Source: Armatimonadota bacterium
GTDB taxonomy: Bacteria; Armatimonadota; SYMT01
DNA: 64,000 nucleotides
Reading direction: 5' to 3'
NCBI GenBank assembly: GCA_046292385.1
Contig: JBKBRF010000029.1
Location: forward strand, 30,089 to 94,088
Shown here: positions 2,520 through 8,931 of the stretch, piece by piece
Layout of the letters: each line of letters starts with the position of its first letter
Numbering within the stretch: the stretch's first letter is position 1
Program-made: the position numbers and the translations under genes
Notes under the pieces: generated by a model
Databases searched by the model: none
Told to the model about the DNA's origin: nothing
What the model saw: only the letters and a program-made list of their open reading frames with translations

Positions 2520-5006
2520 ATGCGCTCCCACCAAACGCCCGCCTCCCGCTCCCGGCTCCGCATCCTGGCCCCCGTGCTTCTGCTGGTCGCCCTGCCGGGG
2601 GCCTTCCTATTTCCGTATCTGTTCCTGGGCCGGTCGATGGTGCCGCTCGACATGCTGCCGGGGTTCCAGCCGTGGGTGCGGCACGCCGCGAGCCTCTGGC
2701 CGGCGGAGGTCTGGACTCCCGGACAGCTCCCCCACAACCCGCTGCTCGACTCGATCCAGCAGTACTTCCCTCGCCGGGTCTACTTCTCCGGCGCGCTCTC
2801 CGGCGGCTGGCTGCCGCTCTGGAACCCATACGTTTACGCCGGCAGTCCCTTCGCGGGGATCCAGCAAGGCGCGCTGCTCTACCCGCCGGCATGGCTCCTC
2901 GCCCTCTTTCCTCCGGAGCAGCAGTTCGGGTGGTCCGCCTTTCTCCACCTCTCCCTGGCGGCAGTCGGGAGCTATCTCTTCTTCCGCCAGATGGAGCTGC
3001 GGCGCGCCGCGGCGGTCGCGGGCGGGGTCGCCTTTGCGTTCAACGGCTTCATCGTCGTCTGGCTCGCCTATCCGAACGTGACACAGTGGACCCTCTGCTG
3101 GCTGCCGCTGGCCCTCTTCCTGTGGGAGAAGGGCCGCGAGCGGGACGATCTCCGCTGGATTGCCGGCTCTGCCGCCGCGCTGGGGCTTAGCCTGCTGGGC
3201 GGCCACGCGCAGAGCTCCGCGTACGTGCTCCTGGTCTGGGCCGCCTGGGCGCTCTACCGCTGCCTCACTTCCGGGCGGCCGCTCTCCGCGCTGGCGCGCT
3301 GGGCCGCGCTGCCGGGCACGCTCGCCGTGCTCTTCGCACTGGGACAGCTCCTGCCGGCGTTCGATTATCTGCCGCGGACCGACCGTTCCGGGCGGCTGCC
3401 GTGGGAGGCAGTCCTGGCGAACGGGATGCCGCCGAATCAGCTCTGGACCCTCATCCTGCCGCGGCTCTTCGGAGACGAGACGGCGGGCTTCGGCACGCTG
3501 CCGAGCTGGCTCAACGGGTACGATACCAGTCCGTACGCCCGCCTCGCCTTCCTCGAGCGGAGCTTCTACCCCGGCGCGGCCGTGCTCGTGCTCGCGGCCG
3601 GAGCCTGGGCGGCCCGGCGGCTTCCGCCGGAGTACCGGCGGCTCGCGCTCTTCTCTTTGGTGCTGGCGGTCGGCGGGATAGCCATGGCTCTCTTTCCGCC
3701 GCTCTACTGGCCGCTCTGGCGCTTCGCCCCCGGGTTCGGACACCTCACCGCCTGGGCGCGCATCATCTGCATCGCCGCGTGGGGCCTGGCAGGTCTTGCC
3801 GCGCTCGGAGTGCACGCGCTCGGCGACGCCGACCCCCTCGTCCGGCGCTCCGCGCTGCGGGGTATCGCCGCGGCCGCCGCCCTCGGGGCGGTGGTAGCGA
3901 TCGCCGGTTACATTCTCCACCCGGTGCCGCTCCCAGTCGACGAGACGCTTCAGCGCCAGGGACTTCCGGCGGCCGACCCGCAGCTCACCCGAGACTTGCT
4001 CCTCGCGCTGGGCTGGCTCCTGCTGCCGGTCGTGATCGCGCTGCTTTCGCTGCCCCTGCAGCAGCGGCAGCGCCCGGTGCTGCAGCCCGCGCTCGCCGCG
4101 GCAGCGGCTGTCGTGGTGATCGCGGCCGACCTCTTCACCTTCGGCTTCGGCTTCAATCCCCGCGCCGATCCCCGCTTCCTCACCGCCCAGGTGCCGGAGT
4201 TGCAGGCGGTGACGGCGGAGCCGGAGGCGTTCCGCTTCCTCTCCGTGGGGCCCGGGCCCGATCCGATGCGGCACCTGCACGAGCGAATGCCGTCCAACCT
4301 CCCCTCCGTGTTCGGGTTGGCGGACGCGCTGGGAAGCGACTCGTTCGTCTCGAAACGCTACCGCCAGTGGGAGCGCGCGCTCTCGCGGGCGACCGGCGAG
4401 GGACCGTGGTCTCGCCCCGGCGCGGCGAACCTGCGCGCCGCCGGCGTGCGCTACTACCTCACCGGCGCGAAGGAGCCCTTTTCCGGACTGGAAGAAGTGG
4501 TCGGCACCGGCCTGCAGCGAGATCCGCGCGCGCTGCCGTACGCACGGCTCCACCCGTTCGCGCAGGCGCTCCCGTCCGAAGCCGCCGTGCTGGAGAACCT
4601 GGCGAACCCGAACCGCTCTCCGCTCGTGGCCCTCGTCGCGGGACCGGACGCGCCCACGTTTTCGAACCCGGGCCCGGTGACGCCGTTCACCGTGCGGCGG
4701 CGGAACGGGAACCGGCTGGTCCTCGAGGGGGAGGCGCCGTCTTCGGGACTGCTGGTGGTGGCCGAGCAGTACGAGCCGGGCTGGCGCGTGGCCGTGAACG
4801 GCCGGCCGGCTCGCCTCTTCCCGGCCGACCATCTTTTCGTCGGCGTGCCGCTGGAGGCAGGCCCGCAGGTGGTGGAGCTCACCTACCAGCCGGCGCCCTG
4901 GCGGGTGGGGCTCTTCGGCACGCTCGCGGCGCTGGGGGCACTCTGCGCGCTCCTCGTCGGAGCGCGTCCGCGCCGTCCGGCAAAACTTTCTACCGCCGAC
5001 GTTTGA
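2520..5006 (+). CDS. YfhO-family polytopic membrane protein (GT-C glycosyltransferase-like)
   Basis: LPLWNPY..AGSP, LLYPP, many TM helices, C-terminal YEPGWRV.VNG and VELTYQP. Confidence 0.85.
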   Translation: MRSHQTPASRSRLRILAPVLLLVALPGAFLFPYLFLGRSMVPLDMLPGFQPWVRHAASLWPAEVWTPGQLPHNPLLDSIQQYFPRRVYFSGALSGGWLPLWNPYVYAGSPFAGIQQGALLYPPAWLLALFPPEQQFGWSAFLHLSLAAVGSYLFFRQMELRRAAAVAGGVAFAFNGFIVVWLAYPNVTQWTLCWLPLALFLWEKGRERDDLRWIAGSAAALGLSLLGGHAQSSAYVLLVWAAWALYRCLTSGRPLSALARWAALPGTLAVLFALGQLLPAFDYLPRTDRSGRLPWEAVLANGMPPNQLWTLILPRLFGDETAGFGTLPSWLNGYDTSPYARLAFLERSFYPGAAVLVLAAGAWAARRLPPEYRRLALFSLVLAVGGIAMALFPPLYWPLWRFAPGFGHLTAWARIICIAAWGLAGLAALGVHALGDADPLVRRSALRGIAAAAALGAVVAIAGYILHPVPLPVDETLQRQGLPAADPQLTRDLLLALGWLLLPVVIALLSLPLQQRQRPVLQPALAAAAAVVVIAADLFTFGFGFNPRADPRFLTAQVPELQAVTAEPEAFRFLSVGPGPDPMRHLHERMPSNLPSVFGLADALGSDSFVSKRYRQWERALSRATGEGPWSRPGAANLRAAGVRYYLTGAKEPFSGLEEVVGTGLQRDPRALPYARLHPFAQALPSEAAVLENLANPNRSPLVALVAGPDAPTFSNPGPVTPFTVRRRNGNRLVLEGEAPSSGLLVVAEQYEPGWRVAVNGRPARLFPADHLFVGVPLEAGPQVVELTYQPAPWRVGLFGTLAALGALCALLVGARPRRPAKLSTADV

Positions 5007-5029
5007 GGAATTCCGCCCCGGGTATGATT

Positions 5030-5342
5030 TCGCTGGAACGAGGAACGCTCGATCCGGTTCTGATAAGAAGCGAAGACGAGGAACGGACGTCAGGAAAGCC
5101 GGACAGGGAACACACGGGATCTGGGACACTACAACCGCATAACGGCAGCACAACTGAAGAACGGCACACAACTGAATAGACAACCGAAGAACATGCCGCT
5201 CTCCGGAGCGGAAGGACAACAGAAGAACGGCAACCGGCCGTGGTTATGCGGTCGCACAACTGAACACGAGATGCGAACAACGGCCCCTCGGGGTCGACAC
5301 AATAGAGAGAGGGCGGTGAGGCTTGCGCTTCACCGCCCTCTC
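5030..5342 (+). ncRNA. Candidate structured small RNA with a GGA cluster and five ACAACNGAANA repeats
   Basis: A-rich intergenic region; TATGAT at 5023-5028; ~9 GGA in 5035-5126; five 11-nt repeats; stem 5134-5143/5243-5252; C(UCCG)G hairpin 5196-5211; closing hairpin 5307-5342. Confidence 0.55.
5307..5342. terminator. Strong hairpin between convergent transcription units
   Basis: GAGAGGGCGGTGAGGC-ttgc-GCTTCACCGCCCTCTC, 16-bp stem with one G-U pair; U-rich tail only on the minus strand. Confidence 0.7.
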
Positions 5343-5368
5343 GGCGTCTCATCTGCGTTTCGGCTGGC

Positions 5369-6751
5369 TCACACCAGCTCCCGGATGACCTCACCTTCGC
5401 CGGCGATCTCCCACGGCCGGCCCTGCGGGTCGTGGAGAATGGTGCCGGGCGAGACGCCCATCTTCTGGTAGATCGTCGCGATCAGGTCGATCGGGCGCAG
5501 GCGGCGTTCGTCCGCGTATCCGCCGTCCGCCGTCGTGGAGCCGATCACCTGCCCGCCGCGCACTCCGCCGCCCGCGGCGACGACCGACATCGCGTGCGGC
5601 CAGTGGTCCCGGCCGCTGTCCGGCGCCTCGACCTTGGGGCTGCGGCCGAACTCGCCCATCCAGAGGACCAGCGTCTCCTTCAGCAGGCCGCGGTCGTCCA
5701 TGTCCCGCAGGAGCGCGCTGAACGCCTGGTCGAGCGTGGGGCAGAGATGGTCCCGCATCCGGGCGAGCGCCCCGATCTCGATCCCCTGCGCCATCAGGTT
5801 GCCGTGCGTGTCCCAGTTACCCGTGGAGACGGAAACGACCGGCACGCCTTTCTCCACCAGGCGCCGGCCCAGCAGGAACGCCTGGCCGAAGCCGTTCTTG
5901 CCGTAGTCTTCCTTCAGCTTCTCCGGCTCGCCGGAGAGGTCGAACGCCTCCCGCGTGGCGCTGGAGGTCACCAGCCCATACGCCCTCCGCTGGTACTCGT
6001 CCAGCGTGCTCGCCGCCAGCTCCCGGTCGGCCAGTCCGGCCGCCCCGTCGATGATCCGCGCGAGGCGGCTGCGGCGCTCCAGGCGGCCACTGGTCACGTT
6101 GGGGGGCAGCGGCAGGTCGTTCAGCACGTAGCCCTGCTTGTCGCTTCCGGTCATGCGCAGGGGCGCGTACGCCGGTCCGAGCCGCTCCGGGTTGTCGTAG
6201 TAGACGTAGTTGAAGCCGCCGATGCCGTACGTGCCGTAGCTGCGGATGCTGATCAGCGGCGGCAGCGCGCTCTGCGGCGGGAGAGTTCGGGCGAGCACGG
6301 AGCCGAAGTAGGGCGCCGCCTGCGCGGGGTTCCCCTGCGAGTCCGGACGGCCGGGCGCGACTCCGGTCTGCATCCAGTGGTCCGCCGCCGTGTGGCCCGG
6401 CTCCTGGTGGTAGATCGACCGGATGATCGCGTACTTGTCCGCAATCTTCGCCATCCGCGGCAGCCACTCGTGGATGCGGATGCCGGAGACGTTCGTCGGA
6501 ATCGCCGAGGAGGGGCCGCGGTAGGCTTCGGGGGCGTCCGGCTTGGGATCGAACGTCTCGTAGTGGCTCGGCCCGCCGCCCATCCAGAGCAGCAGTACCG
6601 CCTTCGCCTGCGGAGCCGCGGCGCCGGCAGCCCGGCCCGCCAGCAGCGTCGGCAGCGTCAGCCCGCCGAGCCCGAGCGCGCCGACCCGGACGAAGTCCCG
6701 CCGGGTGAGTCCATCACAGTAGACCGACCGCCCTCTCCGGATCTCCAGCAT
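5369..6751 (-). CDS. DUF1501 domain protein (Tat-like N-terminus)
   Basis: TRRDFVRVG, WMGGGPSHYETFDPKP, WDTH, GEFGRSP and GRDHWP motifs; GGAGG RBS before ATG 6751. Confidence 0.92.
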   Translation of the reverse strand: MLEIRRGRSVYCDGLTRRDFVRVGALGLGGLTLPTLLAGRAAGAAAPQAKAVLLLWMGGGPSHYETFDPKPDAPEAYRGPSSAIPTNVSGIRIHEWLPRMAKIADKYAIIRSIYHQEPGHTAADHWMQTGVAPGRPDSQGNPAQAAPYFGSVLARTLPPQSALPPLISIRSYGTYGIGGFNYVYYDNPERLGPAYAPLRMTGSDKQGYVLNDLPLPPNVTSGRLERRSRLARIIDGAAGLADRELAASTLDEYQRRAYGLVTSSATREAFDLSGEPEKLKEDYGKNGFGQAFLLGRRLVEKGVPVVSVSTGNWDTHGNLMAQGIEIGALARMRDHLCPTLDQAFSALLRDMDDRGLLKETLVLWMGEFGRSPKVEAPDSGRDHWPHAMSVVAAGGGVRGGQVIGSTTADGGYADERRLRPIDLIATIYQKMGVSPGTILHDPQGRPWEIAGEGEVIRELV

Positions 6752-6899
6752 CGCCGCCTCCCCAGTAGTCCTGCCATTCGGACAACGGCCGGAGGCGCCG
6801 GTTTCAGGGAGTGCGGTAGAGAACGTGTGCCGACTGTGACTGTTCGCCAGCAGGCTGCTTCCGCCAGCCCTTCGGGTGGAGGCACCATTCCCCGAATCT

Positions 6900-7501
6900 G
6901 TCATTCTGAGCCGCAGGCACGGCCGAGAGCCGGCCACGCCCGAAGAAACGATCCCTAGCCCTGACGACCGCCCGACGGCTTTCCGCTTGACCCGCCACTC
7001 ACCGTAAGCAGTCATTCTGAACGCAGTGAAGAATCTCGGCAGCCGGCTTGGTCCGGAGCACGCATCGGGGCGACGAGGACACGGCCTGGCGGAGCGCTCC
7101 CGAACGCGGGTGCTCACCGTACCTCCGGAGAGCCGAGTGACGTAGATCCTTCACTGCGTTCAGGATGACCCTCGGGGGCGGAGCTGTGCTCCCGCAGGGC
7201 TGACGCCGATCCGGTGATGCTGGCTCGCGGGGGAGTTTCTTGAGAACGCAGGGAAGAATCTCGGCAGCCGTCCTGGTCCGGAGTACGCATGCTCGTGACG
7301 AGGACAAGGCCTGGCGAGGCGCTCCCGAACGTGCGGGCACACCGTCTCCTCGAAGAACCGAGTGACGGAGATCCTTCACTCCGTTCAGGATGACCCCCGG
7401 GGAGTAGAGCCGCGCTCACGCAGGGCCGACGCCGCCACCGGCGCTGTCTCGAGGCGCCGAGAAGTCCTGGCGGGAAACTCTTCACTTCCGCTCAGCGTGA
7501 C
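6900..7501. repeat. Cluster of REP/MITE-like palindromic elements (GTCATTCTGA...TCAGGATGAC ends); two tandem units with 225-bp period
   Basis: Unit 1 7011-7169 has 26-bp inverted ends (24/26 match); unit 2 is ~7235-7394; further degenerate ends at 6900 and 7501. Confidence 0.85.
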
Positions 7502-7542: not shown

Positions 7543-8805
7543 TTAGTCGCCGCCGCCGCGGAGGGTCTTGTCGACGATCTTGAGGAACTCGTCGTTGCTG
7601 GTGGTGTTCTTCAGGCGGTCGATCAGCAGCTCGGTGGCCTGGACGGTATCGAGCGCGGCGAGGGCGCGGTGGAGCTTCCAGACCTGCTTGAGGGTCGCCT
7701 CGTCGTGCAGGAGCTCGTCGTGGCGGGTTCCGGAACGCTTGATGTCGATCGCGGGGAAGATGCGGCGCTCCTGCAGGTCCCGGCTCAGGTGGAGCTCCCA
7801 GTTGCCGGTGCCCTTGAACTCCTCGAAGATCATGTCGTCCATCCGGCTGCCGGTATCGACCAGCGCCGTGGCGATGATCGTGAGGCTGCCGCCCTCTTCG
7901 ATGTTCCGCGCGGCACCGAAGAACCGCTTGGGGCGGTAGAGCGCGGCGGGGTCGAGGCCGCCGGTGAGGGTGCGGCCGCTGGGGGTGACGGTCAGGTTGG
8001 AGGCGCGGGAGAGGCGGGTCAGGCTGTCCAGCAGGATCACGACGTCGCGGCCGCTCTCGACCAGGCGCTTCGACTCTTCCAGCACCATGTCGGCGACGCG
8101 GCTGTGGTTCTCCGGAAGCTCGTCGAAGGTGGAGCTCACCACCTGCCCCTTCACGGACCGGCGCATGTCGGTCACTTCTTCCGGGCGCTCGTCCACGAGC
8201 AGGACGATCAGGAACACCTCCGGGTTGTTCTGCGTGATCCCGTGCGCGATGTTCTTGAGCAGCGTCGTCTTACCGGCCTTCGGCGGAGAGACGATCAGGC
8301 CGCGCTGCCCCTTTCCCACCGGGGCGATCAGGTCGATGAAGCGCCCGCTGATGTTGTCCCCGCTCGTCTCCATCTGGAGCCGCTCGTTGGGGTAGACGGT
8401 GGTGAGGTCGGCGTAGTCCTTGCGCTGCCGGGCGCGGTCCGGGTCCATGCCGTTGACCGCTTCCACGCGGAGAAGCCCGTAGTACTTCTCGTTCTCCTTC
8501 GGGGGCCGCACCTGGCCGCTCACCCAGTCCCCCGTCTTCAGGCCGAAGCGCTTGATCTGGGATTGGGAGACGTAGATGTCGTCCGCCGCCGGCTGGAAGT
8601 TGTCGTGCCGGAGGAACCCCCACCCGTCGGAGAGGATCTCGAGCACCCCCTGGCCGTAGATGAGCCCGCTGTTCTCCGCCTGGGTCTGGAGAATCTTGAA
8701 GGTGAGGTCCTGCTTCCGCAGCCGGTCGATGTTCTCGATGTTCAGCTCCCGGGCGATTCCCTGAAGCTCCGCGACTGTCTTCGATTCGAGCTCGGCGAGT
8801 TCCAT
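7543..8805 (-). CDS. rho: Transcription termination factor Rho
   Basis: [40 protein letters not shown] and FEEFKGTGN motifs; GAGGTG RBS before ATG 8805. Confidence 0.98.
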
Positions 8806-8931
8806 GACCACCTCGGTCGATGCGAGGGAAAAGGGGTGCGGTCCGCGAGGTGAGCGGTATGCCGGAACAGCGCGGCGGTGAAGCGGACGGGGAAGACGAC
8901 GACGGCGCGCGGAGCTGCGCGCCTCAAGGCG

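Follow-up and report, generated by a model that had tools for sequence, protein, structure and literature searches.

A candidate decoy-type small RNA with a new repeated unit in Armatimonadota

Introduction

Several described bacterial RNAs are built around copies of one short motif. The small RNAs (sRNAs) CsrB, CsrC, RsmY and RsmZ, which act as decoys for CsrA/RsmA, come from free-standing genes of variable genomic position, end in terminators and expose many copies of a short motif, GGA presented in hairpin loops, that also occurs in the leaders of their targets. CrcZ and CrcY, the Pseudomonas decoys for Hfq with Crc, are A-rich chains with five or six unpaired repeats of an AAnAAnAA motif. 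EutX and Rli55 are riboswitch-linked decoys of the ANTAR protein EutV, in which the binding sites, paired hexaloop hairpins, follow the riboswitch. The ToxI repeats of type III antitoxins are about 35 nt long and strictly tandem, with the toxin gene next on the same strand. Here, we describe a repeat-bearing element at positions 5035-5345 of a 64,000-nt stretch of DNA from an Armatimonadota bacterium (the window; contig JBKBRF010000029.1, positions 30,089 to 94,088), and we ask how it compares with these systems.

Bacteria of the phylum Armatimonadota are widespread in soil, in hot springs and in association with plants, and very few of them have been cultured. The host assembly comprises 7.04 Mb in 91 contigs, has a G+C content of 69% and is 98.45% complete. 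A sequence-only reading of the window had proposed that the element is a structured RNA that sequesters an RNA-binding protein by displaying five repeats in a framework of stems. Our analysis bears out a conserved, independently placed non-coding gene on the plus strand, although the framework of stems proved not to be conserved. We are highly confident that this is a real and previously undescribed free-standing sRNA gene, and it is very likely that its repeated unit is an element recognized in trans. For the full mechanism, in which the RNA acts as a decoy for a protein, we put the probability at roughly 0.45.

Results

An A-rich spacer carries five copies of an 11-nt unit

The element sits in a 362-nt spacer (5007-5368) flanked by two convergent open reading frames (ORFs), 2520..5006 (+), whose product has a YfhO-type C-terminus, and 5369..7117 (-), which encodes a DUF1501 protein. 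We predict a plus-strand RNA of about 310 nt (5035-5345), its start placed from a -10 box and its end from a terminal hairpin. This RNA is 31% A and 11% U, compared with 15% and 16% in the genome, in line with the earlier description of an A-rich gap of about 310 nt in a high-G+C genome.

All five copies of the 11-nt motif ACAACNGAANA listed in the sequence-only reading are present on the plus strand: unit 1 (ACAACUGAAGA, followed by ACGG) at 5150-5160, unit 2 (ACAACUGAAUA) at 5168-5178, unit 3 (ACAACCGAAGA) at 5180-5190, unit 4 (ACAACAGAAGA, also followed by ACGG) at 5216-5226 and unit 5 (ACAACUGAACA) at 5256-5266. By chance 0.07 matches would be expected, and none of 100 dinucleotide shuffles gave five. 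The whole 7.04-Mb genome holds 11 occurrences, five of them in the element, while a reversed-pattern control has none. With a looser form of the pattern, the genome shows no second cluster of at least three units; one two-site pair lies at another place on the element's contig, and we judged it to be chance. A variant sixth unit, ACAACCGCAUAACGG, lies just upstream at 5131-5145 (+), and AACCGCAUA variants of the unit occur also in G004, G005, L018, L025 and L027 (throughout, G-numbers denote relative genomes, with G000 for the host itself, and L-numbers denote loci that we examined).

Aligning 74 units from 13 arrays yielded a 14-nt consensus, A-M-A-A-C-Y-G-A-A-U-A-R-C-G. Positions that the search pattern had left free are biased as well, with A in 62 of 74 units at position -2, C in 43 at +10 and G in 57 at +11, and the variable core position holds U in 45 units and C in 22. 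Spacing between the five units is irregular (18, 12, 36 and 40 nt; 12-17 nt in other arrays).

The unit recurs across the phylum while its surroundings change

A BLAST search of the spacer against 40 relatives returned only two short matches, both within look-alike elements, so the RNA as a whole is too variable to be followed by DNA similarity. Homologues could nevertheless be collected through the unit. There are five close ones, namely the window's own copy, those of G004, G005 and G006 in the same family, and the metagenome locus L251; a shorter form is present in G007, from a sister family. Within the host's family, four of the seven genomes carry the element. A sequence-only model of three consecutive units, run with Infernal's stricter filters against 151 genomes sampled across the phylum, matched 19 of them at E <= 0.01, and about 15 of these were convincing on reading. 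Matches in G095 and G097 (simple repeats), G085 (probably coding) and G064 were rejected or doubted. Combining the model with a pattern scan places convincing arrays or pairs in at least nine families (f1, f2, f6, f7, f10, f13, f22, f27 and f29), and a typical array was also found in a Chthonomonadaceae record. There is usually one locus per genome, with two in some (G144).

Between arrays the spacers, hairpins and 5' domains vary freely, the copy number ranges from 3 to 9 and the length from about 150 to 430 nt. The neighboring genes are unrelated among 11 other array-bearing genomes, apart from the close relatives G004 and L251. In the window, the gene for the transcription termination factor Rho (7543..8811, -) lies two genes from the RNA, a closeness that is not kept in relatives.

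Less stringent searches were dominated by other kinds of repeats. A two-unit pattern matched 58 of 401 phylum genomes. Its reversed control matched many as well, and many of the matches were coding Thr-Glu-Glu repeats or AACTGAA microsatellites; for these reasons we did not use the raw tally. Likewise, wider scans of genome contigs (among the matches listed) and of metagenomes (116 stretches) returned mostly coding acidic repeats and microsatellites, with L132, L251, a few riboswitch leaders and some look-alikes as the useful yield. In three metagenome contigs (L188, L209 and L299), a pair of units, ACAACUGAAUAGACAACUGAAUAG, is followed by a hairpin and then a terminator; the stem of this hairpin differs among the contigs while its loop, GGAACAUGAGCC, is kept, and it may mark another unit-bearing small RNA. 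Non-coding look-alike arrays of AACTGAATA or AACTGAACA repeats, some of them closed by a terminator, exist outside the Armatimonadota in Bifidobacterium rousetti (L083), Streptomyces malaysiense (L127) and a Chloroflexia metagenome-assembled genome (L092), and Rfam assigns no family at these three loci.

The motif had not been recognized as a named family, and database searches agree. Rfam (release 15) has no family at gathering score in the window and nothing relevant at E <= 10 in 4950-5420, and across 41 related loci it reports only riboswitches, 6S RNAs and tRNAs. We also considered and rejected a 6S RNA: its model (RF00013) does not match here, though it finds the 6S RNA at L054, and the predicted fold is multi-branched and not a long rod. 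The openly accessible literature that we searched contained neither the motif nor Armatimonadota regulatory RNAs. The motif string has a single chance occurrence in the Mycobacterium small-RNA table of PMC7399025, which is irrelevant here.

Conserved signals place the RNA on the plus strand

Upstream of the predicted start is a promoter-like element on the plus strand (5001-5028), made up of GTTTGA (5001-5006), a 16-nt spacer ending in CGGG, and TATGAT (5023-5028). The -35-like GTTTGA overlaps the stop codon of the upstream ORF. A box of the form GTTTnn-N13-CGGG-TATnAn stands at an equal upstream distance in 5/5 close homologues (the window, G004, G005, G006 and L251). Because a scan with the sigma-70 consensus calls no promoter at GTTTGA-N16-TATGAT, we describe the box as promoter-like by conservation only. 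The TATGAT had been pointed out previously together with the caveat that a good -35 box was missing; the consensus scan agrees with that caveat, but a GTTTGA that is conserved in relatives stands in the place of the missing box.

At the other end, a 16-bp G+C-rich hairpin with a UUGC loop (5307-5342, +) is a likely terminator. It is not followed by a U-tract on the plus strand, as had been cautioned. Homologues finish in comparable long G+C-rich hairpins, and arrays from A+T-richer genomes end in a terminal hairpin plus a U-tract on the motif strand. The hairpin may serve the convergent minus-strand gene too.

Other features also single out the plus strand. The UCCG, GCGA and UUCG tetraloops (UNCG and GNRA types) and the G-U pairs of the predicted hairpins are specific to it, and a C-to-U variant at 5197 in RNA-library contigs retains its pair, as U-G, on the plus strand only. 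Over 35 loci, we counted AAC[CT]GAATA, the exact unit, 88 times on the array strand and a single time on the opposite one.

These data bear on the idea that there is no separate gene here and that the spacer is the 3' tail or terminator zone of the DUF1501 gene, U-rich on the minus strand, or read-through from the YfhO-like gene. The spacer does lie between convergent genes, the 16-bp hairpin could end both of them, and a consensus scan gives three minus-strand terminator-like sites in the spacer where 0.5 would be expected. Those minus-strand "terminators," however, are the same hairpins joined to the complement of the A-rich units. The homologues adjoin entirely different genes, the conserved promoter-like box is on the plus strand and the strand-specific features favor that strand as well, so we regard a 3' tail as highly improbable.

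The predicted fold leaves the units unpaired

The minimum free energy (MFE) fold of 5035-5345 has a stability of -111.6 kcal/mol and is multi-branched with open spacers. When the spacer was compared with shuffled sequences, the plus strand gave z = -4.9, with 0/100 shuffles as stable, and the minus strand z = -2.7. Every stem named in the sequence-only reading was recovered: a 10-bp long-range stem (5134-5143/5243-5252), the hairpins at 5196-5211 and 5281-5296, and the 16-bp terminal hairpin. The 5' arm of the long-range stem consists of bases 5134-5143 of the variant sixth unit, of which 10/15 bases are paired, and its 3' arm, GUUAUGCGGU (5243-5252, +), masks that unit. The hairpin at 5196-5211 (+) reads CCGCUC-UCCG-GAGCGG, with a UNCG-type loop on the plus strand, and the one at 5281-5296 (+) reads CGGCCC-CUCG-GGGUCG, with a G-U pair and a counterpart (..CCC-UUCG-GGGU..) in G004, L251 and G006.

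Within this fold the five units stay largely open. Units 2 and 4 are unpaired over 11/11 bases and units 1, 3 and 5 over 8/11 each, so that 46/55 unit bases are unpaired. The mean pairing probability is 0.16 in the units and 0.58 in the rest of the RNA; for A residues it is 0.04 inside units and 0.29 elsewhere. The same holds in 13/13 arrays, where the units are predicted to be less paired than the remainder. The proposal that a repeated motif stands single-stranded between hairpins thus agrees with the predicted folds, and it is the motif that is conserved. With the exception of the sequence-conserved CCC-UUCG-GGGU hairpin, the hairpins look like interchangeable spacers.

Upstream of the units, the 5' domain of the predicted RNA (5035-5130, +) is purine-rich and contains repeated GGAAC/GGGAACAC words. 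GGGAACAC(G)G words are found again in G004, L251 and G006, and the words of the 5' third may be a second kind of site.

The sequence occurs in RNA libraries

A small share of the sequence words of 4600-5800 was found in six RNA runs, and four of these runs, examined as contigs, together cover 5053-5300 at 98-100% identity. Runs X15 and X16 both contain a 153-nt contig identical to 5124-5276; since contig and depth are the same in both, we counted them once. A 272-nt contig from X17 spans 5053-5300 with five differences, and X18 contributes contigs that cover 5062-5135 and 5106-5270. Soil and plant RNA libraries from at least three studies contain this sequence or one from a very close relative. 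Coverage of the flanks was not used as evidence; in the four runs the upstream gene is without cover and the DUF1501 gene is represented by short pieces at 88-90% identity. Past 5300, the X17 contig continues with 24 bases that repeat 5078-5101 (one difference) in place of the terminal hairpin, and this join could reflect a duplication carried by a soil relative, a read that is chimeric, or a molecule that is joined or circular.

The repeats might instead act in DNA, as an operator, iterons or similar direct-repeat protein sites, with any transcript incidental. Direct repeats 12-18 bp apart between genes could in principle bind a protein, but the spacing of the units is irregular and not helical. 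Moreover, the units are always on the strand that leads from the promoter to the terminator or into a riboswitch, they are flanked by hairpins with strand-specific tetraloops and G-U pairs, and their sequence is found in RNA libraries. There is very little chance, in our estimation, that the repeats function as DNA.

Units accompany riboswitches, tRNAs and terminators in other transcripts

The unit also occurs in transcripts of a different kind. In families f22 and f6, 2-4 units stand directly 5' of a c-di-AMP riboswitch (Rfam RF00379, 67-87 bits), in the order strong TTGACA/TATAAT promoter, short 5' hairpin containing CACCUCCCC, units and aptamer. The unit-bearing c-di-AMP loci are L043, L047-L054, L249 and L254, and nine of the loci were scanned with Pfam; in six of them the gene after the element encodes a calcineurin-like phosphoesterase. 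In the same two families, units also lie 5' of a tandem c-di-GMP-I riboswitch; the unit-bearing loci of this kind are L044, L330 and L331. At least two units within 90 nt upstream were found for 5/13 c-di-AMP and 3/26 c-di-GMP-I riboswitches in five genomes. The units are tied to one particular locus of each riboswitch kind per genome and not to the whole class. At one of these loci (L054, 578-762, in G252) a 6S RNA gene lies directly downstream of the unit-bearing c-di-AMP riboswitch transcript.

Three genomes show another arrangement, in which a c-di-GMP-I riboswitch is followed by a conserved ORF of about 64 amino acids, 2-3 units and a U-tract terminator (L375 1501-2200 in G063, L045 450-1100 in G197 and L046 291-1090 in G312). 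The ORFs share the pattern SF[VI]P.YG..L.GDIED..LD, and the G197 copy, the only one scanned, has no Pfam match. We rejected the ORF product as a partner of the unit because tblastn found no homologue in the host genome (best E = 0.28). Finally, units occur in tRNA-operon spacers, at one site in the host genome and as a pair in the metagenome locus L281, and just ahead of terminators at the 3' ends of genes. This recurrence in other transcripts of the phylum is the pattern expected of a site read by a trans-acting factor.

One such factor could be a ribonuclease. The unit would then be where a major endoribonuclease, RNase E/G or RNase Y, preferentially enters or cleaves, and the array either a competitive substrate that buffers the enzyme or a precursor that is cut into pieces with hairpins. 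In model bacteria, such endoribonucleases act in tRNA-operon spacers, and units are found there, just 5' of riboswitch aptamers and just ahead of terminators. RNase E/G and RNase Y are each encoded by one gene in the host genome, and the units are predicted to be single-stranded and flanked by hairpins. Yet the tRNA-spacer cases are two anecdotes, and the RNA is U-poor (11%) while the known sites for RNase E and RNase Y are A/U-rich. RNA-library contigs of 153-272 nt also run across several units, which is weak evidence of uncut molecules as the contigs were assembled from overlapping reads. On balance, we think a ribonuclease site doubtful.

A proposed protein decoy compared with base pairing

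We propose that the gene produces a plus-strand sRNA of about 310 nt, running from a lineage-typical promoter, GTTTGA-N16-TATGAT, to the 16-bp terminal hairpin. Its working parts would be five to seven copies of the 14-nt unit, which short stable hairpins would keep unpaired in an A-rich, U-poor chain. A single trans-acting factor with sequence specificity would bind at each unit. This factor would most likely be an RNA-binding protein that is conserved throughout the Armatimonadota, and many sites on one abundant, stable molecule would draw it off its other RNA ligands. In other families, the leaders of certain c-di-AMP and c-di-GMP riboswitch transcripts, with 2-4 units each, would be among those ligands. 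Protein binding, the identity of the protein and titration are the parts that we infer; a multi-site decoy best explains the independent transcription of the RNA, the repeated accessible unit as its only conserved feature and the presence of the unit in other leaders.

Several observations weigh against this proposal, beginning with the search for a protein. The flanks of 11 arrays have no gene in common. CsrA (PF02599) has no match in the host genome and none in 3/3 relatives of the same family, although it is present in 17/24 array-bearing relatives; its absence from the host and from 7/24 array-bearing genomes excludes it as a general partner. Hfq (PF17209; two matches in the host genome, the best at 90 bits) and RNA-recognition motif (RRM) proteins (nine genes in the host genome) are encoded in all 24 array-bearing genomes searched and for that reason do not discriminate. 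Neither neighborhood nor the CsrA, Hfq and RRM searches singled out a protein. The unit does not fit the (A-R-N)n rule for Hfq, in which its conserved C-Y-G core has no place, and a contiguous conserved stretch of 9-14 nt is longer than what one RRM or KH domain reads and is just as typical of pairing between RNAs.

Nor do the host's other sequences reveal targets. We left the window out when building a weight matrix of the unit; in the host genome this matrix finds 48 sites, five of which are the array, against 40 for the reversed control, and the intergenic share of the sites is the same as the control's, so no motif-bearing regulon is visible in this genome. Counting the motif genome-wide, as had been suggested, thus confirmed a unique cluster but no excess of single sites. 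The host's own riboswitches, three for c-di-AMP and one for c-di-GMP, have no units upstream. Within the host's family, the three-unit model found no array in G001 (95% complete), G002 (80%) or G003 (69%), and a search with the G006 RNA found no homologue in them either.

In G004, L251, G005 and G006 the long-range stem has no counterpart, and in the shared UUCG hairpin 0/6 pairs show a compensatory double change among four sequences. The only change there is one-sided, from G-U to A-U in L251; together with the missing long-range stem, this leaves a conserved fold without covariation support. The framework of stems in the sequence-only reading is present in the predicted fold but not kept in relatives, and the collection of homologues it called for returned the unit without covariation. 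Lastly, the RNA-library contigs are silent on strand, ends and level, and DNA may occur in such libraries.

A base-pairing RNA is an alternative. Here, the units would be repeated seeds or anti-seeds that pair with UAUUCRGUUGU-like sites in mRNAs, or soak up a single sRNA, probably through Hfq. The contiguous core is of the usual seed length, the C or U at its variable position would be tolerated opposite G, and all of the genomes searched, the host included, encode Hfq. The hairpin and U-tail at the ends of arrays from A+T-richer genomes are as in Hfq-dependent sRNAs, and within the window RNA itself the anti-unit GUUAUGCGGU pairs with the variant unit in the MFE fold. Against pairing, the counts of 48 and 40 cover unit and anti-unit sites on both genome strands and show no excess, and the opposite-strand form is as rare in the 35 loci (1 versus 88) as noted above. 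A complementary conserved RNA was not found, the one 6S RNA examined (G252, L054) having no such sequence, and the GCAUA and GAAGA variants of the unit would disrupt pairing to a fixed partner. We consider base pairing unlikely, though somewhat less so than a ribonuclease site, and prefer a protein decoy.

Some single units in the host genome deserve mention in their own right. An exact 16-mer, ACAACCGAATACCGGC, which is a single extended unit, is found at two intergenic sites with unrelated flanks, G000:C4:209540-209555 (L001) and G000:C17:111634-111649 (L004); the C17 copy, with a terminator-like hairpin after it, may be part of a further small RNA. The top single-unit match in the genome, GAAAACTGAATAGAG (26 bits, G000:C19:74350, L315), is located 46 nt ahead of the start of a gene whose protein has a signal-peptide-like N-terminus, and it is a candidate target leader with one site only.

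Discussion

A single-copy RNA in which only a repeated 14-nt unit is conserved, and whose unit is reused in riboswitch leaders, points to an unnamed post-transcriptional regulator that is used throughout the phylum. The unit offers a direct handle for finding this regulator. More speculatively, the unit may be the recognition code of a new Armatimonadota regulator wired into cyclic-dinucleotide signaling, with the free-standing RNA as a high-capacity, stand-alone decoy and the aptamer-fused units of some families as decoys that would follow the second messenger in their stability or shape. Such a scheme is at present doubtful; if it were true, it would represent a new regulator-decoy pair and a new coupling of riboswitches to a global RNA-binding factor. 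Should the riboswitch-linked forms indeed be ligand-dependent decoys, they would be a new kind of link between global RNA control and the sensing of c-di-AMP and c-di-GMP. If the unit is instead a ribonuclease site, it would give the cleavage code for a major RNase of this unstudied phylum.

How does the element compare with the repetitive RNAs that are already described? Like ToxI, it is a non-coding RNA of direct repeats. Its units, however, are 11-15 nt long and irregularly spaced (the 18, 12, 36 and 40 nt given above), and the next gene is convergent and belongs to the DUF1501 family. The resemblance to EutX and Rli55 lies in other Armatimonadota families, where a single short transcript combines units with a ligand-sensing riboswitch. 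By analogy, this suggests that the riboswitch-joined units are a decoy for which a small molecule sets the amount or the shape. The window RNA differs in having no riboswitch, the units of its relatives are upstream of the aptamer, and they are linear motifs.

CrcZ and CrcY are closer in composition, as both they and the window RNA are A-rich and carry five or six unpaired motif repeats, and Hfq is encoded in the host. Nevertheless, the element lacks their motif, since the AAnAAnAA pattern AANAANAA has four matches in the window and none within 5007-5368, and it has no match to them in Rfam. The CsrB, CsrC, RsmY and RsmZ group is the nearest in organization, sharing with the window RNA a free-standing gene, many copies of a short exposed motif, a terminator at the end, a variable genomic position and a motif that also occurs in leaders. 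What sets the Armatimonadota RNA apart is again the unit. A-M-AACYGAAUA-RCG is displayed in unpaired spacers, the units (ACAACNGAAKA) contain no GGA, and the GGA words of the 5' domain are not the repeated conserved element; furthermore, Rfam finds no match to the group here and the host genome encodes no CsrA. We conclude that the element is a decoy-type sRNA in design, separated from CsrB/RsmZ and from CrcZ by the features that define them, and built on a new unit of its own.

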